Shown piece after piece: positions 1,704 to 16,643 of a stretch of 24,000 bases of DNA (position 1 is its first letter; every line of letters begins with the position of its first letter). The notes below the pieces were generated by a model. It ran no database searches. It saw only the letters and a list, made by a program, of their open reading frames with translations, and was not told where the DNA came from. The translations under genes and the position numbers were made by a program. The DNA is from Paracoccaceae bacterium (GTDB lineage Bacteria > Pseudomonadota > Alphaproteobacteria > Rhodobacterales > Rhodobacteraceae): positions 55,995 to 79,994 of the forward strand of contig JAZGFN010000011.1 in NCBI GenBank assembly GCA_036479695.1. Reading direction: 5' to 3'.

Positions 1704-1788
1704 TGGTACCCGAGGCCGGACTCGAACCGGCACACCTTGCGGCGGGGGATTTTGAATCCCCTGCGTCTACCAATTCCGCCACTCGGGC
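1704..1788 (-). tRNA. tRNA-Leu (anticodon CAA), CCA encoded
   Basis: The reverse complement reads GCCCGAGTGGCGGAATTGGTAGACGCAGGGGATTCAAAATCCCCCGCCGCAAGGTGTGCCGGTTCGAGTCCGGCCTCGGGTACCA. It has a 7-bp acceptor stem, anticodon loop TTCAAAA, a long variable arm, a GGTTCGAGTCC T-arm, and is 85 nt long. Confidence 0.95.
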
Positions 1789-7234: not shown

Positions 7235-7929
7235 AAGGGCTGCACCAGAAATACGGCATAGTCGTATTCACCAAAATGCGCCTCAAACAGGGCAATTTCA
7301 GCCTCGGTTTCGACCAGAACGGCGGCCATGTTGTCACTAACCGGAGATTTGCGCAGTTCCGAAATCCGCGCGGCAAGCGAGGCATAGTAATGCTGCCACC
7401 CGGCGCGGCCCAGTGGCGTGGCCGAGGTCACGTTAAATCCGCAACCCTCAATGCGTTGGCGCATGCTGGCGATGGTCCCGATTTGTGGATAGGCTTCTTG
7501 CCAAAAGGTTTTGGCCGCGTTTGATGGGGTATCTGTCAGCCAGACCACCTCGGAAAAGGCGATCCTGCCACCGGGTTCCAGATGCGGCCCCCACGCCTTT
7601 AGCGCCGCTTCAATGCCAACGAAATACACTGCCCCCGCGCACCAGATCAGATCAAACTTGCCATCCGGCGCCAACATGTCGCTCACATGAAAATCCGCGC
7701 GTAACCCGCGGGCTTTGGCAGCGGCGATAAACTCTGGATGTTTATCCACGCCGATGATTTCCACCTCCGGCAGCATGTCCAGCATCATCGCGCTATCTGC
7801 CCCCGAGCCACAGGCGGCATCAAAAATCCGCGCTTCTTTCGCCAGACCTTGCAGCGCCCGCGCCAGACTTGCCTTATCGCCGGGGCCTTCGCGGGTTAAA
7901 CCACTGTAAAGGGTCCAGAAATCCTGCAT
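7231..7929 (-). CDS. class I SAM-dependent methyltransferase
   Basis: Motif I IFDAACGSGADS, then acidic GVD and DLIWCAGAVYF. 232 aa. The ATG at 7929 directly follows the cimA TAG stop. Confidence 0.75.
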   Translation of the reverse strand: MQDFWTLYSGLTREGPGDKASLARALQGLAKEARIFDAACGSGADSAMMLDMLPEVEIIGVDKHPEFIAAAKARGLRADFHVSDMLAPDGKFDLIWCAGAVYFVGIEAALKAWGPHLEPGGRIAFSEVVWLTDTPSNAAKTFWQEAYPQIGTIASMRQRIEGCGFNVTSATPLGRAGWQHYYASLAARISELRKSPVSDNMAAVLVETEAEIALFEAHFGEYDYAVFLVQPL

Positions 7930-9591
7930 CTAGCCTTTGGCCCCGTCGCGGATCAGTTTCCAGTTGATCGCATCAAGCAGTGCCTGAAATGACGCATCGA
8001 CAATATTTGCCGAAACCCCGACCGTCGACCAGCGCTGCCCCTGCGCATCTTGTGAGTCAATCAAAACACGGGTCACAGCCTCGGTGCCGCCGTTGGTTAT
8101 GCGGACCTTGAAATCTACCAGCCTCATATCATCGATATATTTCTGATATGGCCCAAGATCTTTGCCGAGCGCCCTGCTAAGCGCATTGACCGGACCCTGA
8201 TCATGATCATCATCCATGCCGTGACTTTCAGAGGCGCTGATCACCCGTTCACCAGAGATTTTGGCGACCACAACGGCCTCGGAAACCGTAATCATCTGTT
8301 TCAGGGCATTTTGGCGCCGCTCCACAGTCACACGGTAACGCTCAATCTCAAAAAACCGTGGCATAGTGCCCAAAACATCGCGCGCCAGCAGATCAAAACT
8401 GGCCTGTGCGCTGTCATAAGCATAGCCCTTATCCTCACGTTCTTTGACCCGCTCAAGGATCGCGGACAGCGCCGGATCACCCTTGGCAACCTCAATCCCG
8501 GCATCTTGCAGGCGGGCGCGCAGGTTTGACTGGCCGGCCTGATTAGACATTGGCACGGTGCGGGTATTACCGACAACCTCGGGCGGGATATGTTCATAGG
8601 TGCTGGGATCTTTGAGGATCGCACTGGCGTGCAGCCCCGCCTTATGCACAAACGCAGACGCCCCGACATAGGCCGCATGGGCGTTTGGCACGCGGTTCAA
8701 AATATCATCAAGCATCCTCGACAGGCGCGTCAGATTGGCCAAATCGGCGCGGTTAACCCCGATATCATACTGGCTGGCGTAGGGTTCTTTCAGCAAAAGC
8801 GTCGGGATCAGGCTGGTGAGGTTGGCGTTGCCGCAACGTTCCCCCAGCCCGTTGAGCGTACCTTGAATTTGGCGCGCGCCCGCATCCACCGCCGCCAGGC
8901 TGTTGGCCACGGCATGTTCGGTGTCATTATGGGTGTGAATGGCGATGTGATCCCCGGGAATGCCAGCCCTGATCACCGCTTTGACAGCCATGCGCACATC
9001 ATCCGGCATCGCACCGCCATTGGTATCACATAAAACGATCCAGCGTGCCCCGGCATCATGGGCGGCCATAACGCATTCCAGCGTGTAATCGGGGTTGGAT
9101 TTATAGCCGTCAAAGAAATGTTCCGCGTCAAACAGCGCCTCACGTTTCAGGGATTTCAGATGGGCGAATGATGCACGGATATTTTCGACGTTTTCTGCCA
9201 AACTAATGCCCAGCGCCGTTGTCACGTGGAAATCATGGGACTTGCCAACCAGACAAACCGCGGGGGTATTGGCGTTGGTTACCGCGGCCAGCACATCATC
9301 ATTTTCCGCCGAGCGCCCGGCCCGTTTGGTCATGCCAAAGGCCGTGAATATGGCTGATTGCAGCTTGGGCGGATGGGCGAAAAACTCGGAATCCGTCGGG
9401 TTGGCGCCGGGCCATCCCCCCTCAATATAATCCAACCCCAACGTATCGAGCGCATCGGCAATACGCACCTTATCCTTGGCCGAAAAATCCACACCGTGGG
9501 TCTGCTGACCATCACGCAGGGTGGTGTCATATAGGTAAAGACGTTCACGCATCGTATTTTCCTTTGTGCGCTGTGTTACGATGTTTGCCAT
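7930..9591 (-). CDS. cimA: citramalate synthase / LeuA-related (2-isopropylmalate synthase family)
   Basis: LYDTTLRDGQQTHGVDFSAKDKVRIADALDTLGLDYIEGGWPGANPTD plus HTHNDTEHAVANSLAAV, with a long C-terminal regulatory region. The ATG at 9591 overlaps the cysS stop (TAATG); M14 is an alternative start. Confidence 0.8.
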   Translation of the reverse strand: MANIVTQRTKENTMRERLYLYDTTLRDGQQTHGVDFSAKDKVRIADALDTLGLDYIEGGWPGANPTDSEFFAHPPKLQSAIFTAFGMTKRAGRSAENDDVLAAVTNANTPAVCLVGKSHDFHVTTALGISLAENVENIRASFAHLKSLKREALFDAEHFFDGYKSNPDYTLECVMAAHDAGARWIVLCDTNGGAMPDDVRMAVKAVIRAGIPGDHIAIHTHNDTEHAVANSLAAVDAGARQIQGTLNGLGERCGNANLTSLIPTLLLKEPYASQYDIGVNRADLANLTRLSRMLDDILNRVPNAHAAYVGASAFVHKAGLHASAILKDPSTYEHIPPEVVGNTRTVPMSNQAGQSNLRARLQDAGIEVAKGDPALSAILERVKEREDKGYAYDSAQASFDLLARDVLGTMPRFFEIERYRVTVERRQNALKQMITVSEAVVVAKISGERVISASESHGMDDDHDQGPVNALSRALGKDLGPYQKYIDDMRLVDFKVRITNGGTEAVTRVLIDSQDAQGQRWSTVGVSANIVDASFQALLDAINWKLIRDGAKG

Positions 9592-10982
9592 TACAATACC
9601 TCTAGCTTTGCAGGGTCAAAATTCGATGTAATTTCCGGAATAACACTGTCTTTTCCAACCATCAGTTTTACGCCCGCGGCGACCATACCGGATTTGAGAC
9701 GATCCGCCTCCTCCCAATCTTTTGCCGCGCGGGCCGCCATAAGTTGGGCGATGAGTTGCTCAAGCTTGGTATTCGTGTCGCCTGACAGTACCTGATCCGC
9801 CCGGGTGCCATCAAACAGCCCCAGTAGATTAATCGACGATAGGAACATCCCCCGTTGGATAGGGCAGTTTTTACCCCCGTCATTCGCGATCTCTTTGGCC
9901 ATTTCATGCAATCGGGTCATCGCACCGGATATGTTCATATCCTGCGTAAGCGCATCAACCACGCCTTGGTCGATATTCCCCGAGGTTTGCGCATCTTTCG
10001 CAAGTTCGTGCCAATGGCGCAATGTAGCCTCGGCGTGTTTTACCTTTTGCGCAGTCCAATCCATCGGTGATCGGTAATGCGTGGAAAGCAGCACAAAGCG
10101 GATCACTTCGCCTGCAATCCCCTGATCCAACAAGTCGCGCACAGTAAAGAAATTGCCCAAGGATTTAGACATTTTTTTGCCCTCGACCTGCAACATTTCA
10201 TTGTGCATCCAGATGTTAGCAAACCCGCCAGAAGGGTTGGCGCAGCAGCTTTGGGCGATCTCATTTTCATGGTGGGGAAACTGCAAATCCAGCCCGCCGC
10301 CGTGGATATCAAAACTTTCGCCCAGCAAATCCAGCGCCATGGCTGAACACTCAATATGCCAGCCCGGACGCCCAAATCCCCAAGGGCTTTCCCAGCCCGG
10401 TTGATCGCCGCTGGAAGGTTTCCAGAGCACAAAATCCATCGGATCGCGTTTGTAATCGGCAATTTCAACCCGCGCACCGGCGCGCATATCCGCCAGCTTG
10501 CGCCCGGACAGCGCGCCGTAATCTGCATAGGAATTAACGTCAAACAGCACATGGCCCTCGGCGGCATAGGCGTGCCCCTTATCGATTAGATCAGCGATCA
10601 TCTTAACCATTTGCGGGATGTATTGCGTGGCCCGTGGCTCATGGGTTGGGCGCAGATTACCGATGGCCGTCATATCCTGATGATACCAGTCGATGGTTTC
10701 ATCCGTAACATCGCGGATCGACTGGCCCGTTTCAGCAGCTTTGGCGTTGATCTTATCATCAACATCCGTAAAATTGCGCACATAATGCACGCCGTAATGG
10801 CCATAAACATGGCGCAATAGGCGAAACAGTACATCAAACACCACCTCGGCGCGCGCGTTACCCACATGGGCGCGGTCGTACACTGTCGGGCCACAGACAT
10901 ACATGCGCACATTATCCGGATCAATCGGCGCAAAAACTTCTTTGCTGCGGGTCTTGGTGTTATACAATTTTATCTCGGTCAT
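9591..10982 (-). CDS. cysS: cysteine--tRNA ligase
   Basis: Class I signatures HVGNARA (HIGH-like) and KMSKSLGN. 463 aa. Confidence 0.95.
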
Positions 10983-11418: not shown

Positions 11419-12831
11419 ATGAAATTATCAGAATACACGAAATGGAGCGCCCGGGCCAGTGAATGGGCCACGCGCTATTTTGCCAACCTTCGGGCGCAGC
11501 CGGTGCGCGCGCAGGTAAAACCGGGCGATATTTTGGCAGAACTCCCCCTTGCCCCCCCTGAGCAGCCGGAATCCATGGACAGGGTTTTTACCGATTTCGA
11601 GCGCATCATCCCCAAGGGCATGACCCATTGGCAGCACCCCCGGTTTTTCGCCTATTTCCCCGCCAATGCCGCCCCCGCCAGCATGATTGCCGAGCAATTG
11701 ACCGCGGCAATGGCGGCGAATGCATTGCTGTGGCAGACCTCTCCGGTCGCCACCGAGCTTGAGCAGCGCATGGTTGACTGGCTGCGCCAGGCGCTTGGCC
11801 TGCCGGGTGGTTTTAGCGGTGTTATTCAGGATAGCGCTACGTCCGCGACCCTGTCGGCAATCCTGACCATGCGCGAACGTGCGCTTGATTGGCAGGGGAT
11901 AAAATCGGGGGTGGCGGGCACGGTGCAAACTCGTATTTACGCCAGCGCGCAGACCCATAGTTCCATCGATAAAGGTGTTTGGGTCGCAGGGGTCGGGCAG
12001 GATAATCTGGTGAAAATCCCCACTGACGCGCGGTTTGCCATGTGCCCTGATGCCCTGCGTGCTGCGATTTCTGCGGACCGTGCGGCAGGCATGTTACCGG
12101 CAGGGATTGTGTTATGCGTGGGCGGCACGGCGATCGGGGCTTCGGATAATCTGCGCGAAATCATTGCAATTGCCAAGGCGGAAAACCTTTATACCCATGT
12201 GGATGCGGCCTGGGCCGGCTCGGCGATGATCTGTCCTGAGCTGCGCGATATCTGGGACGGTGTTGAAGACGCTGACAGCATTGTCTTTAATCCGCATAAA
12301 TGGCTGGGCGCGCATTTTGACTGCTCGGTGCAGTTTCTGGCCGACCCCGCGCCGCAGTTGCGCACATTGGGCCTGCGCCCGGATTATCTGCAAACGCTCA
12401 ACCAATCCGAGGTGGTGAATTTCAATGAGTGGACCATCCCGCTCGGCCGTCGTTTTCGCGCCCTTAAACTGTGGTTTTTGCTGCGCGCCTATGGGCTGGA
12501 GGGCCTGCGAGAACGTATTCGCAATCATATCATTTGGGCCAATGAAGCCGCCAAACGTACCGCCAGCCTGCCCGGATTTCGCCTGACTACCCCTATAAAT
12601 TTTTCGCTATTCACGTTTCAATTCGCGCCAGACGGCCAAGATCCAAACACCACAACCCGCACCTTGCTGGAGGCCGTGAATAACGACGGGCGCATATATC
12701 TTAGCCATGCTCTGGTTGAGGATAAATTCGTCATACGCATGCAGGTCGGCCAATTTGATTGCACCCGCGACGACGTTATGTTGGCGGTTAAGGTGCTGCG
12801 CGAGCTGTCCCAAAGGCGCGCAACTATTTAA
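11419..12831 (+). CDS. group II PLP-dependent decarboxylase (aromatic-L-amino-acid/tyrosine decarboxylase-like)
   Basis: ATG 11419 is preceded by GGAGAGATTGGGGGG. Motifs HWQHPRFFAYFP and the PLP-lysine motif FNPHKWL. I rejected the upstream TTG 11368 start from the ORF track. Confidence 0.85.
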   Translation: MKLSEYTKWSARASEWATRYFANLRAQPVRAQVKPGDILAELPLAPPEQPESMDRVFTDFERIIPKGMTHWQHPRFFAYFPANAAPASMIAEQLTAAMAANALLWQTSPVATELEQRMVDWLRQALGLPGGFSGVIQDSATSATLSAILTMRERALDWQGIKSGVAGTVQTRIYASAQTHSSIDKGVWVAGVGQDNLVKIPTDARFAMCPDALRAAISADRAAGMLPAGIVLCVGGTAIGASDNLREIIAIAKAENLYTHVDAAWAGSAMICPELRDIWDGVEDADSIVFNPHKWLGAHFDCSVQFLADPAPQLRTLGLRPDYLQTLNQSEVVNFNEWTIPLGRRFRALKLWFLLRAYGLEGLRERIRNHIIWANEAAKRTASLPGFRLTTPINFSLFTFQFAPDGQDPNTTTRTLLEAVNNDGRIYLSHALVEDKFVIRMQVGQFDCTRDDVMLAVKVLRELSQRRATI

Positions 12832-12940
12832 CGGCGCGGATAATCATGTGCATGTTTGCTCTGATCCCATGGTTTGTGGCTATTTGAATAACGGACATGA
12901 ATGTATGGACATATGCGATCATGTCTGCTCAACCATAAGT

Positions 12941-12968
12941 AAAGCCGCGTCAATGAGCGCGGCTTTTT
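12941..12968 (+). terminator. rho-independent terminator downstream of the decarboxylase
   Basis: aaagccgcg-tcaatgag-cgcggcttt forms a 9-bp stem with an 8-nt loop and runs into ttttt. Confidence 0.7.
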
Positions 12969-13096
12969 CGAGCGCCTGTGATGTGCAGAATGCCAATCCC
13001 GACAGCCGGATTTTGCCGGACTGCAACTGCATACTTGCATTTATAGCGCTTTTTGGTAAGGTTATTTTTTTGCGATTCCACTTTAGGGATAGTTAT

Positions 13097-13662
13097 ATGC
13101 GATCTATAATTTTTGTATTTGGGATAATTCTTGCTACAGTCTCTACCGGTATTGAAGCACAAGAATGCCAGAGTATTGAAGCAGAACACCAACAACGACA
13201 AAAATTCCCAACGACGATGATGGCGCATGGTACGTCACCACCACTGTCTCGGAAATGACAGACGATACGACGGTGACTATGAAGGTGAAATCCGAACAAA
13301 TATTGAGTTGCGGCTATACACCGGCAAAAGCATTGCTGGTCATACGGTGTATGGAAAACAGAACTTCCTTTTTTATATCTACCGAATGCCATTTGGCCAG
13401 TGGACATGGTGGATATGGCAGTGTGACCTATAGACTTGATGATCACGATGCCATTACTAAAGAATTTGATGCCAGCAGCAACAATGCTGCGCTGGGGCTT
13501 TGGTTCGGTAGTGAGGCAATCCCTGTAGTCAAAAATATGTTTGACAATGATTCCGCTATCTTCAGGTTTATGCCGTATAATAAATCCACTGTTACTGCGC
13601 GCTTCAACATCACAGGCCTTAGAAAACAGATCACGCCGCTGCGCGAAGCGTGTGGCTGGTAG
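13097..13662 (+). pseudogene. VasI/TagO-like (VC_A0118-type) secreted protein, split by a frameshift
   Basis: ATG 13097 is preceded by AGGGA and opens a signal peptide MRSIIFVFGIILATVSTGIEA|QEC. That frame stops at 13256-13258. The body (open from 13180, first ATG 13255, ending ...ITGLRKQITPLREACGW at 13662) is in the -1 frame. An A5 run at 13200-13204 lies in the overlap. Confidence 0.6.
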
Positions 13663-13672
13663 ATTTAATAAA

Positions 13673-13726
13673 TATACGCTATTCCGTAAATTACTTCTTG
13701 CAAACACATACGCCATAGCGTATAAT
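13673..13726 (+). promoter_or_regulatory. sigma70-type promoter of the TA operon with flanking inverted repeat (candidate autorepression operator)
   Basis: TTGCAA (13698-13703), a 17-nt spacer, then TATAAT (13721-13726). A 10-bp inverted repeat tatacgctat (13673-13682) / atagcgtata (13715-13724) has its right arm overlapping the -10. Confidence 0.65.
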
Positions 13727-13752
13727 AAAAGTAAGGAAACACGGAACAGGCA

Positions 13753-13989
13753 ATGCAAGTCATCATCACCAACACCGCCGCCAAAGACCTTCGCAAGATG
13801 CCCAAAAGGGATGCGGCAGCTATTCTGGTTAAGCTGGATATCTATGCCACAAAGGGCGTTGGGGATGTTACGAAGCTGCAAGGACGCGACGGATATCGCC
13901 TGCGCCACGGCAAATATCGCGCCATTTTTGAAATCAACGGCGATGTGATCGTGTTGATCATCGCGCACCGTAGCAAAGTTTACAAATAG
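13753..13989 (+). CDS. type II toxin, RelE/ParE superfamily (HigB-like gene order)
   Basis: 78 aa. ...KLQGRDGYRLRHGKYRAIFEINGDVIVLIIAHRSKVY fits the RelE/ParE pattern. The toxin gene precedes the antitoxin gene. Confidence 0.85.
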   Translation: MQVIITNTAAKDLRKMPKRDAAAILVKLDIYATKGVGDVTKLQGRDGYRLRHGKYRAIFEINGDVIVLIIAHRSKVYK

Positions 13990-13998
13990 GAGGCAGAA

Positions 13999-14343
13999 AT
14001 GCACATCGAAATGAACAAAGAAGGCGCAGAAATGGTTGTGCTTACCCGGGGCGAGTTTGACGACATGACCTTTGACAACGCCGCCTTTGACGCCGCGCAA
14101 CGGGATCGCGCCGATCTGACCATTACCAGCCGCGACATAAAGGCCATTCTGTCCGGCACCCTGCACCCGCTGACCGCGTGGCGCAAAGCGGCTGGCTTTA
14201 CGCAAAGCCAACTGGCCGAACGCGCCAAAACCCGCACCGCAACCATTAGCGACATTGAAGGCGCGCGCATCGATCCCCGCATTAGCACCCTGCAAAATAT
14301 TGCCGCCGCGCTGGGGCTGGATGTTGATGATATTACTAGTTGA
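13999..14343 (+). CDS. antitoxin with C-terminal XRE-type HTH (HigA-like)
   Basis: 114 aa. The HTH LTAWRKAAGFTQSQLAERAKTRTATISDIEGARIDPRISTLQNIAAALG sits in the C-terminal half, after an acidic N-terminal extension. It starts 10 nt after the toxin stop, with AGGAGG upstream. Confidence 0.85.
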   Translation: MHIEMNKEGAEMVVLTRGEFDDMTFDNAAFDAAQRDRADLTITSRDIKAILSGTLHPLTAWRKAAGFTQSQLAERAKTRTATISDIEGARIDPRISTLQNIAAALGLDVDDITS

Positions 14344-14360
14344 GACCCTTATCTGCCCTA

Positions 14361-14444
14361 TCGCAGGTCGGCCAGTTTGATTGCACTCGAAACGACGTTA
14401 TGTTGGCGGTGGATGTGTTACAGGAGCTATCCCAAAGCCTTTAA
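14361..14444 (+). pseudogene. displaced 3' fragment of the PLP-decarboxylase gene
   Basis: It translates in frame as SQVGQFDCTRNDVMLAVDVLQELSQSL-stop, versus MQVGQFDCTRDDVMLAVKVLRELSQRRATI-stop at the live gene end. There is no upstream coding continuity (in-frame TAG at 14337). Confidence 0.8.
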
Positions 14445-15691
14445 TCCATGATTAATGCATCAATATCCCTGCGTACAAGTTCCGACGCAACGGGATTAAA
14501 ATCTTTGTCCAAGGCATTGTTTGCATTGTCAAATATATAGTGTAACTGCGGTTGGCCAGCAGTAAGCCCGGAAATCGGCACCACGTATGAACGGGTCATA
14601 TGCATCTGTGTGCGATAGGCGCAAAGAACGCTGTCACCGATCTCGCAGCGCTGGCCACGCGTTGGTAAAAACTGCATGTGATAGTCAATATCCTGAGGCA
14701 CATCATGGCGATATTCCACCCGGTTATTGCGCGCATCCTGCCAATTTGCGCCCACCAACCCCTCGACTTTATCGCCATAAGCCGTGTGATAGACCCCGCC
14801 CCCGTAAGCATAGGCGCGACCCTCATAAAAATGCGAGATTTCGCTTATATAGACAAACGCCGTGCGCTCTGCCAGATCATTGCGAAAGGCGTTGTTTGGC
14901 ACTGTCCCGAGCAAGGCATTCCCCGGCTCTACATGTGTGGCCCCGCAGCTTTTCAAAAGTGCCATATCCGCACAAGATGTGTTACCCGGCGCGTTAATCT
15001 GGTGAACCTCAACCCCAAGAGCGCGTAATTGTTCAGCCGCGCGGATGATCGTATGCATGTTTGGCGTGATCTCGACCCGCTCAGCCGCGGTTTCATTATA
15101 GCGCAAACACGGAAATGCGGTGACGCCGATCAGCCTGACGTTTGGCATGGCCTTCAGGGCTGTCACCAGCGCCGGAATTTCGCCCTCGGCAAATCCGCCT
15201 TCTTGCCCCGTAAAAAATACGTCCTCTGGCGCATGAACCCTGATCAGCAGGTCCTGTATGATCCCAAGCTTTGCTGCCGTGCGATCAATCCAGCTGGCAT
15301 GTTCTACGTTGTAAATGGTGATGACCTCGGGGCGCATGGCCACGACCTTTGCCATCTGGTGTTGGGGTATCTGGTTAAGATGCCCCGCATGGCCCAGCGG
15401 CAATCCATAGCGCGCCGCGTGCAGACAACAGGTCGCATCCACCGCGACAATCTTGTGCAAGCCCTGCCCCAACGCAATCGCGTTGATATAGGGGTTACGG
15501 TTATGCTGTTTAGACATCAGATATGTGGTCAAACCTTGCGCCCGTGCCGCATGCGCCAACGCAGCAGCATTGTCAGCAATTGCATCAAGGTCCACCACCC
15601 AGGAATTGGCCGGTATCAGCCCCTTTTGGTGCATTTCGAGCGCCGCCTGACATAATGCCGGGCTTTTTTCCAAAACATGATCCAGATACAT
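14441..15691 (-). CDS. YhfX-like PLP-dependent enzyme (alanine racemase fold, putative amino-acid racemase)
   Basis: 416 aa. YLMSKQHNRNPYI, GHAGHLNQIP, INAPGNTSC, THVEPGNALLGT and ISEISH all parallel E. coli YhfX as I recall it. Confidence 0.75.
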   Translation of the reverse strand: MYLDHVLEKSPALCQAALEMHQKGLIPANSWVVDLDAIADNAAALAHAARAQGLTTYLMSKQHNRNPYINAIALGQGLHKIVAVDATCCLHAARYGLPLGHAGHLNQIPQHQMAKVVAMRPEVITIYNVEHASWIDRTAAKLGIIQDLLIRVHAPEDVFFTGQEGGFAEGEIPALVTALKAMPNVRLIGVTAFPCLRYNETAAERVEITPNMHTIIRAAEQLRALGVEVHQINAPGNTSCADMALLKSCGATHVEPGNALLGTVPNNAFRNDLAERTAFVYISEISHFYEGRAYAYGGGVYHTAYGDKVEGLVGANWQDARNNRVEYRHDVPQDIDYHMQFLPTRGQRCEIGDSVLCAYRTQMHMTRSYVVPISGLTAGQPQLHYIFDNANNALDKDFNPVASELVRRDIDALIMD

Positions 15692-15809: not shown

Positions 15810-16643
15810 GTGTCGGATCGCGCATATTTCACCCCCAAAGGGGGCCTGCCTTCGCAAAATGCTCTTATGAGTGATCGTGCGGTATTCACCGAAAGCTACG
15901 CAGTCATTCCAAAGGGTGTGATGCGCGATATCGTCACCAGCCGCCTGCCCGGCTGGGCGCATACGCGCACATGGGTTTTGGCGCGGCCTCTAAGTGGTTT
16001 CGCTGAAACTTTCTCACAATATATCATGGAGCTTGCACCCGGTGGGGGCAGTGATACCCCTGAACCCAACCCCAATGCTGAGGGCGTGATTTTCGTAACC
16101 GACGGGGTGCTGGCCCTGACCCTCAACACCATTGAGCATGAAATGCAGCCCGGCGGCTATGCCTATATTCCACCCGGTGGCGCGTGGAGCGTTACAAACC
16201 CCAGTTCCGAAAATGTGACTTTCCACTGGATTCGCAAGTCCTACGAACAAGCCGATAGCATCGCTTTGCCCGAGGCTTTTGTGACGAATGAACAGGATAT
16301 CGCGCCTATTGCCATGCCGGGTACAGATGGCGCCTGGGCGACAACCCGCTTTGTTGATCCCGATGATATGCGCCATGATATGCACGTCAATATCGTAACT
16401 TTTCAGCCCGGCGGCACCATTCCATTTGCCGAAACCCATGTGATGGAACACGGGCTTTATATGCTGGAAGGCAAGGCCGTTTATCGCCTGAATTCCGACT
16501 GGGTCGAGGTTGAGGCCGGGGATTTCATCTGGCTGCGCGCCTTTTGCCCGCAAGCCTGTTATGCAGGTGGCCCGGGGCCATTTCGCTATCTTTTGTATAA
16601 GGATGTGAACCGGCACGCCCGTCTTGGCAGTTTTTTGAAATAG
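15810..16643 (+). CDS. allE: (S)-ureidoglycine aminohydrolase (bicupin, AllE/YlbA family)
   Basis: GTG 15810 is preceded by AAGGA. The C-terminal cupin DMHVNIVTFQPGGTIPFAETHVMEHGLYMLEGKAVYRLN...YKDVNR parallels E. coli AllE. Confidence 0.8.
   Translation: MSDRAYFTPKGGLPSQNALMSDRAVFTESYAVIPKGVMRDIVTSRLPGWAHTRTWVLARPLSGFAETFSQYIMELAPGGGSDTPEPNPNAEGVIFVTDGVLALTLNTIEHEMQPGGYAYIPPGGAWSVTNPSSENVTFHWIRKSYEQADSIALPEAFVTNEQDIAPIAMPGTDGAWATTRFVDPDDMRHDMHVNIVTFQPGGTIPFAETHVMEHGLYMLEGKAVYRLNSDWVEVEAGDFIWLRAFCPQACYAGGPGPFRYLLYKDVNRHARLGSFLK

Follow-up and report, generated by a model that had tools for sequence, protein, structure and literature searches.

How does a protein-coding gene come to have two 3' ends, one fused to it and the other stranded downstream beyond a set of other genes? 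This question is raised by a 24,000-nucleotide stretch of DNA from an uncultured Paracoccaceae bacterium (GenBank assembly GCA_036479695.1, contig JAZGFN010000011.1, positions 55,995 to 79,994; "the window" hereafter means this whole stretch), in which the gene for a pyridoxal-phosphate (PLP)-dependent decarboxylase is followed 1.6 kb further on by a diverged copy of its own tail, with a small RNA (sRNA) gene, a broken VasI/TagO-like gene and a toxin-antitoxin (TA) pair between the two copies. An earlier note, made from the sequence alone, had seen here an island without integrase in the 3' end of the decarboxylase gene, and had left three options for its origin, namely a decayed island, a mini-element mobilised in trans or a recombination patch from a diverged donor. 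Our analysis favours the first of these, given that the cargo is phage-derived and eroded, its RNA operon being cut short and its VasI-like gene lacking 40 internal nt. The insert is probably the decayed remnant of a phage-like element that carried an attachment site mimicking the end of the decarboxylase gene, integrated site-specifically with replacement of the gene's tail and later lost most of its length by deletion; we speak of a remnant and not of an element because an adjacent tyrosine or serine recombinase is missing. The features that carry the argument are the following, in coordinates of the window, with L001 standing for the closest relative, which is described below.

11419-12831, plus strand: PLP-dependent decarboxylase, now a hybrid gene (PF00282, E=4e-88; 86% amino acid identity to L001; MEE9453995.1)
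12741-12831, plus strand: copy A of the gene tail, read as the left attachment site (attL), with a host-derived part (12741-12769), the core (12770-12788) and an element-derived part (12789-12831)
14363-14444, plus strand: copy B of the gene tail, read as the right attachment site (attR), with an element-derived part (14363-14391), the core (14392-14410) and the orphaned original tail (14411-14444)
14441-15691, minus strand: yhfX-like gene, the native right flank (YhfX-like_C, Ala_racemase_N; 89% amino acid identity to L001)

The repeat pair is real and singular. In an ungapped alignment of 12741-12816 with 14363-14438, 63/76 positions are identical, and a repeat finder returned the same pair as 75 nt at 84% identity with a spacing of 1622 nt; the runner-up match of the 76-mer, over the whole window and both strands, reaches 39/76. 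Inside the alignment lies a 19-nt core, ACGACGTTATGTTGGCGGT, which occurs exactly twice (12770-12788 and 14392-14410), and no third site is present in the window even when 3 mismatches are allowed, the chance expectation being 0. The decarboxylase frame is kept in both copies, copy A translating to QVGQFDCTRDDVMLAVKVLRELSQRRATI and copy B to QVGQFDCTRNDVMLAVDVLQELSQSL, each followed by a stop, and the TAA of copy B (14442-14444) overlaps the complement of the yhfX-like stop (14441-14443). The earlier note had described the recurring tail, the identical block and the interlocked stops, all of which are borne out by these counts. It had also named an assembly artefact as a danger to its reading, but L080, which Logan assembled from run SRR17063066, agrees with the window base for base (100%) across 5180 nt including both copies, and the duplication is therefore not an artefact of the assembler.

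Which of the two tails is the original one can be judged from the relatives of the decarboxylase, which were scanned in one genome per species and amounted to 78 loci. The sole close relative among them is L001, from a Rhodobacterales metagenome-assembled genome, and a search of 5.8 billion proteins returned nothing nearer to the decarboxylase, the next match lying at 74%. L001 has the same gene order of cysS, decarboxylase, convergent yhfX-like gene, cupin and ureidoglycolate lyase, in which the cargo is absent and a single tail is present. Two further genes of this order lie in the window as follows.

9591-10982, minus strand: cysS
15810-16643, plus strand: cupin

The L001 decarboxylase ends in …QVGQFDCTRDDVMLAVDVLHELSQGL (…AVDVLHELSQGL; …DVLHELSQGL) followed by a stop, which is an end of the copy-B type, and this stop sits in a CTTTAATCC interlock with the yhfX-like gene, just as copy B does. 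Since the single tail of L001 is of the B type and stands in the same interlock, copy B represents the ancestral gene end, as the earlier note had proposed, and the alignment with a relative that it had recommended gives the predicted picture of a cargo-free decarboxylase abutting the convergent yhfX-like gene. It had regarded as fatal a relative that lacks the cargo and still carries both tails, as well as an empty site closed by a copy-A tail; L001 carries one tail only, and that tail is of the B type. No second tail copy was found within 6 kb in the loci of the 78 other species.

The two copies are, moreover, not simply diverged but polarised. With L001 as outgroup, every position that differs between A and B was scored. 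To the left of the core, L001 shares the state of copy A at 4/4 informative sites, and over the whole segment it agrees with A at 28/29 positions and with B at 24/29; to the right, it sides with copy B at 15/17 informative sites, and the whole-segment agreement is 36/42 for B and 23/42 for A. The allegiance thus switches at the 19-nt block (Fisher p=0.0025). A-left and B-right are accordingly host DNA, and B-left and A-right were brought by the insert. Such a hybrid pattern, with host sequence on the outside, foreign sequence on the inside and the switch at the core, defines attL and attR and places the crossover within or next to the identical 19 nt, and it sustains two further proposals of the earlier note, namely the attL/attR architecture and the arrival with the insert of the tail that is now fused to the gene.

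The body of the decarboxylase and its tail up to the core are native, and its last ~14 codons (from about 12789) together with the stop come from the insert. This replacement tail reads KVLRELSQRRATI and a stop (12789-12831), the orphaned original tail in copy B reads DVLQELSQSL and a stop, and B-right is colinear with L001 into the yhfX-like gene. At 470 aa, the protein has a length that is typical of its family (465-475 aa). A native tail reconstructed from A-left, the core and B-right agrees with L001 at 67/78 positions, which is the level of the flanking DNA, where the identity to L001 is 81.6% in the decarboxylase and 85.9% in the yhfX-like gene; with other lineages it agrees at 56/78 or fewer. 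The reconstructed foreign tail, QVGQFDCTRNDVMLAVKVLRELSQRRATI and a stop, agrees with every lineage at 58/78 or fewer and still looks like a genuine decarboxylase end. In P0042/L099, which has an unrelated genomic context, the native tail …AVAVLRELSQQRSG resembles the foreign VLRELSQ-R, and B-left matches several other lineages at 23/24; no donor lineage of the foreign tail stands out among those compared.

Events of this type are known from Escherichia coli, where, in the work of Hill et al. 1989, e14 and phage 21 reportedly lie in the 3' end of icd. There the last codons of icd come from e14, and a duplicate of 163 bp, pseudo-icd', remains on the distal side of the prophage (PMC6379469). The present locus is like the e14/phage 21-icd system in that the insertion lies in the 3' end of a coding gene, a slightly different replacement tail keeps the gene functional, the original tail is kept as a pseudo-fragment at the far end and the diverged direct repeats correspond to attL and attR. 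It is unlike e14, which is about 15 kb long and has an integrase, in being 1.6 kb long without a recombinase, and it differs in target gene, clade (Paracoccaceae) and repeat length (76-91 nt versus 163 nt). Of the features that define the e14/icd type, flanking gene-tail repeats, a distal-type empty site (in one relative) and hybrid polarity are found here, and an adjacent integrase is not.

We propose that the history began with a temperate phage, or an integrative element resembling one, whose own attachment site (attP) mimicked the last ~25 codons of a PLP-decarboxylase gene. It would have integrated site-specifically into the 3' end of that gene, presumably through a tyrosine or serine recombinase, with the crossover within or beside the 19-nt block. 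The replacement tail borne by the element would then have been fused to the decarboxylase (attL, copy A), keeping the gene open, and the original tail, its stop still overlapping that of the yhfX-like gene, would have been left 1.6 kb away as a pseudo-fragment (attR, copy B). Later deletion would have taken most of the element, the integrase included, leaving behind the 5' part of an immI-like RNA operon, a VasI-like gene with a 40-nt deletion, and a RelE-type toxin and its helix-turn-helix (HTH) antitoxin, with frames, promoter and operator palindromes all intact. The TA pair is probably what made this remainder persist, through addiction of a post-segregational or deletion-counter-selecting kind. 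The cargo between the two tails comprises the following features.

12832-12937, no strand assigned: 106-nt segment between the replacement stop and the sRNA terminator
12938-13026, minus strand: isrK/C4-type sRNA gene (RF01394 match at 12938-13024)
13097-13662, plus strand: VasI/TagO-like pseudogene (PF11319; pieces of open reading frame (ORF) at 13097-13225 and 13255-13662)
13675-13726, plus strand: predicted TA promoter with operator-like palindromes (from a promoter scan; function putative)
13753-13989, plus strand: RelE/ParE-superfamily toxin, 78 aa, frame intact (PF05016; phrog_1213)
13999-14343, plus strand: Xre-HTH antitoxin, 114 aa, frame intact (HTH_3/HTH_31; phrog_7241)

This cargo looks phage-derived, judging from the isrK-type RNA, from the arrangement that it shares with the loci L094, L081 and L131, and from the placement of all three proteins in PHROG families. 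The RNA matches the isrK model (RF01394) on the minus strand at 12938-13024 over model positions 1-77/77 with 39.2 bits (E=2e-7), which is below the Rfam gathering score of 50; its relatives score 44.4 (L094) and 30.2 bits (L081). With the score below this threshold, we describe the RNA as resembling, and perhaps working like, the isrK/C4 family and do not claim membership. The hairpin at 12941-12966 forms the terminator of the RNA and is predicted to terminate the decarboxylase on the plus strand as well. The earlier note had seen here a terminator followed by some 260 bp of AT-rich spacer; the terminator stands, and the spacer is not empty, as the minus-strand RNA gene lies inside it.

Further copies of the RNA, all on the minus strand, are found in L094 (7843-7928 and 7726-7821), L081 (56-141) and L131 (437-526), and a divergent VasI-like gene is paired with the RNA in these three loci as in the window, at scores of 30-44 bits. 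The consensus of 3 sequences forms three hairpins with one compensatory pair, and the L131 copy reaches 105.7 bits on R1, a covariance model trained on the three remaining ones. Over the 130 nt that precede the VasI-like gene, the window and L081 share 77% identity, which exceeds the conservation of the VasI-like protein and is explained by the RNA gene that lies there. A search with the conserved sRNA pattern gave no match in IMG/VR and a single contig in the JGI metagenomes, namely L131, which at 1.2 kb is too short for the attachment-site ends to be seen. Among 31 VasI-bearing viral loci the covariance model recovered its training sequences only, and the linkage of RNA and VasI-like gene is therefore specific to a lineage.

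The isrK/C4 RNA families were described from enterobacterial phages, and the immI operon of phages P1 and P7 has the layout a1b1 - c4 - icd - ant. In the Gifsy-1 isrK-orf45-anrP locus, a short structured RNA with a terminator of its own heads an operon that leads to an antirepressor (PMC4825925). The cargo RNA is like these systems in being a structured RNA with a terminator and in its full-length isrK match, and in the context of its relative in the L094 prophage, where a VasI-like gene points away from the RNA on one side and a C4-like RNA (39.5 bits) and a Rha/ANT antirepressor gene come after it on its own strand. It is unlike them in its sub-threshold scores, in its alphaproteobacterial and not enterobacterial setting, and in lacking a target in cis: the C4-like RNA and the antirepressor are absent from the window, where sequence homology with L094 and L081 breaks off near 12938, just past the terminator. 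Position at the 5' end of an antirepressor operon is thus seen in L094 and not in the window. The presence of isrK/C4-type RNAs in prophages of the Paracoccaceae type, and hence in Alphaproteobacteria, would widen the range of the family.

For the adjoining 106-nt segment (12832-12937), a comparison with 1.46 Mb of fetched loci brought up nothing significant. A strong hairpin, GGACATGA…TCATGTCT, lies within it at about 12892-12926, and the segment might be what is left of an attP arm, or else a deletion scar. A match to a Leu leader at 12887-12970 was rejected, as it was judged to be driven by the terminator hairpin. Separately, the early region of the L094 prophage holds a SorY/SorX-like sRNA match (10582-10681, minus strand; 45.6 and 38.4 bits, both under the gathering scores) with a conserved CCUCCCUGUUGG loop and a terminator.

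The VasI/TagO-like gene shows signs of erosion. Its C-terminal ORF matches PF11319 with 46.3 bits against a cut-off of 26.5 (E=5e-12) and belongs to phrog_1848 (E=2e-29). DNA alignment with L094 and L131 places a clean 40-nt deletion between 13180 and 13181, through which the DLDRLACYD motif was lost and the frame was shifted; the gene that the earlier note had called broken is thus indeed broken, into two ORF pieces, and what is annotated publicly as "TagO" is a portion of it only. The nearest homologue, P0020 (61%), lies in the lambda-like prophage L094 together with genes for a portal protein, gpW, a large terminase, the Rha/ANT antirepressor and a methylase, and the VasI-like gene is intact in L081 (divergent, 33%) and in L131. 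The homologues are located in prophages and islands. VasI-like genes were found in 31 IMG/VR contigs and stand directly beside an integrase in some of them, at a distance of about 300 nt in L117, L118 and L120, and they may be regarded as common accessory genes of prophages. No type VI secretion genes were seen in the inspected VasI-like neighbourhoods of L094, L096 and L097, and no type VI secretion families were found among the scanned ORFs of the window or the called genes of L079. The VasI/TagO-like proteins of L100-L130 (IMG/VR), L094, L096 and L097 have a signal peptide and a C..I..DLDRLACYD motif, and occur as single accessory genes.

In contrast to the pseudogene, the TA pair has two intact frames. 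The toxin matches PF05016 with 31.4 bits against a cut-off of 23 and belongs to phrog_1213, a RelE-like toxin family of the accessory-gene category; its nearest solved structures are RelE3 (PDB, E=3e-4) and RelE. The antitoxin, a member of phrog_7241, matches HTH_3 with 41.4 bits and follows the toxin after a gap of 9 nt. The earlier note had called the pair HigBA-like; it is a TA pair, and the toxin is RelE-like, with only the gene order resembling that of HigBA. A sigma-70-type promoter, TTGCAA-17-TATAAT, is predicted at 13698-13726, and palindromic operator-like sites are predicted at 13675-13688 and 13709-13722, flanking or overlapping it; the palindrome TACGCTATAGCGTA recurs upstream of the toxin gene in L081. 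In that locus, the RNA, the VasI-like gene and a TA pair (toxin 65% and antitoxin 63% identical to those of the window) are followed by unrelated genes, one of which has a phage-primase-like end. The pair is like type II TA islets of the RelBE/HigBA type in its toxin-first order, with a RelE fold and an Xre-HTH partner, in its palindromic promoter of the autoregulated type and in being a horizontally acquired remnant. It is unlike the solved RelE systems in that the toxin is only remotely similar to them, and its toxicity and stabilising effect are predictions from sequence. A comparison with the PADLOC defence families returned only generic HTH matches.

Homologues of the antitoxin are always paired with a toxin (L081, L083, L086, L088, and L082, where the toxin is degenerate), and elsewhere in the Alphaproteobacteria the family forms solitary two-gene islets between housekeeping genes. 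In L083 (7753-8483, after cobN), L086 (7743-8363, after a guanylate cyclase gene) and L088 (3986-4593, after capsule synthesis genes), the pair is oriented as the upstream gene, and the L083 antitoxin has 160 aa, the usual length being about 115. No tail duplications were found around the pairs of L082, L083, L086 and L088, and no flanking repeats of at least 18 nt around those of L083, L086 and L088. The L082 islet, about 1.2 kb on a TARA scaffold (7743-9004), has a toxin with an in-frame stop near its N-terminus and an intact antitoxin, and a 127-aa C-terminal integrase stump, corresponding to the last 75 positions of PF00589, abuts a tRNA-Met gene there (8928-9004, minus strand). We read L082 as an intermediate on the same path of decay, in which the island is gone, the integrase is nearly gone and the TA pair has been kept.

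Where, then, is the recombinase? As the earlier note had remarked, no ORF between the repeats matches a recombinase family; the same holds for the rest of the 24-kb window and for the called genes of L079. Several findings weigh against the reading of a decayed phage-like element. The searches turned up no intact relative that has such an attP or an integrase linked to it. When QVGQFDCTR was back-translated and sought in IMG/VR, as a phage with a decarboxylase tail as attP would carry it, a single out-of-frame chance match (L098) was returned; the antitoxin had no confirmed relative in IMG/VR, the whole insert as DNA had no match in phage and plasmid collections, and a degenerate pattern for attL, attR, attB (the empty site) and attP had none in the JGI metagenome contigs, among which this species appears to be absent. 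Nor was an integrase seen downstream of the decarboxylase in other loci. The 25 Pfam families most often hit by 120 downstream ORFs do not include Phage_integrase (the first two ORFs of 180-650 aa past the decarboxylase in the other genome loci), where families with a single ORF are unlisted and one case is thus possible, and a tblastn panel of five integrases had no match in the 78 loci. Only 19 nt separate the antitoxin stop from copy B, so that a P arm of the lambda type could not be accommodated on the attR side without reaching into coding sequence, and no arm-type repeats of at least 8 nt are common to the two inner ends. The RNA-VasI(-TA) module of L094 and L081 lies inside the phage and not at a prophage end, and two deletions or a differently organised ancestor would therefore be needed. 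The sharp limits of homology could be ordinary boundaries of phage mosaicism and not deletion scars. Finally, the polarity of the copies comes from one outgroup, at 81.6-85.9% DNA identity.

A first rival is a small non-autonomous element that never had an integrase of its own, consisting of the attP, the sRNA, the VasI-like gene and the TA pair; the integrase of a helper phage or island with matching att specificity would have inserted it in trans and could still excise it. This explanation survives best among the rivals, although we consider it unlikely. Both attachment-like copies are complete and share the exact 19-nt core, the unit is compact, with cargo running nearly edge to edge up to the 19 nt before copy B, and L081 has RNA, VasI-like gene and TA pair together in one block as well. 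The absence of an own recombinase between repeats that resemble recombination sites is also what is seen in integrative mobile elements exploiting Xer (IMEX), which use XerCD at dif, and in satellites with helper integrases. Unlike such elements, however, the insert has no second copy elsewhere (in the 5.8-billion-protein search, the context look-ups or the phage and plasmid DNA collections), no attP/attB junction was found in the JGI metagenomes, no excision junction or helper integrase came into view, and the cargo is eroded in both its RNA operon and its VasI-like gene. The repeats here are those of a gene tail and not of the chromosomal dif locus, with a core that was not compared with the dif consensus, and the L081 block is embedded among genes of the phage replication type and not bounded by gene tails.

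A bolder version of this idea, which we hold to be quite improbable, is that the 1.6-kb unit is a functional, att-flanked cassette without an integrase, which can still be excised and re-inserted by the integrase of a related temperate phage and doubles as a small anti-phage package. If this were true, incoming relatives would have their antirepressor operon targeted in trans by the orphan isrK/C4-type RNA, and abortive infection or addiction would be the role of the RelE-type module.

It is similarly improbable that the insert is a recombination patch, that is, a ready-made remnant that entered by homologous recombination from a related donor, with crossovers in the decarboxylase and the yhfX-like gene. 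Such an entry is compatible with the decayed phage-like element, whose delivery to this host could have occurred by transformation or by a gene transfer agent. Rhodobacterales exchange fragments of a few kb through gene transfer agents. In the decarboxylase itself, the 3' third is about 72-73% identical to L001 in 60-nt windows, against a gene average of 81.6%, and residues 429-436 (12703-12726), which closely precede the repeat, read SHALVEDK in place of the (T)QT.H.G. that is found in L001 and in almost every homologue; both could be a trace of recombination or ordinary divergence. However, a patch merely moves the origin to the donor, in which att-type integration would still be required; a sliding comparison has no sharp break of identity, A-left and B-right are both native-like relative to L001, and no donor lineage was identified. 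A non-mobile origin, be it a transposon target-site duplication, a tandem duplication with an unrelated insertion or an assembly chimera, might be suggested by direct repeats flanking an insert without recombinase, but it is very improbable, as repeats of 76 nt that are 17% diverged are unlike those of a transposon or insertion sequence, divergence polarised around an identical block is not predicted by duplication and drift, terminal inverted repeats (inverted k-mers of at least 7 nt linking the two inner ends) and transposase genes are both absent, and the two assemblies agree base for base.

Taking the insert as the remnant of a phage-like element, the 3' end of a PLP-dependent decarboxylase gene may represent a previously undescribed attachment site in Paracoccaceae. 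What would be new is this site, the host clade and the unusually small and well-polarised remnant; the type of event is known, and the current understanding of how such elements work is unchanged. The locus would offer a fully polarised tail-replacement integration at a late stage of decay, in which the integrase has disappeared before the attachment scars, a TA pair and a regulatory RNA. Annotators should accordingly take the 82-nt tail left downstream and the hybrid end of the gene neither for independent ORFs nor for natural C-terminal variation. Elsewhere in the window, a tRNA-Leu(CAA) gene (1704-1788, minus strand) and an ORF for a stand-alone HNH endonuclease (PF01844; 2978-3559, minus strand) lie about 1.2 kb apart.

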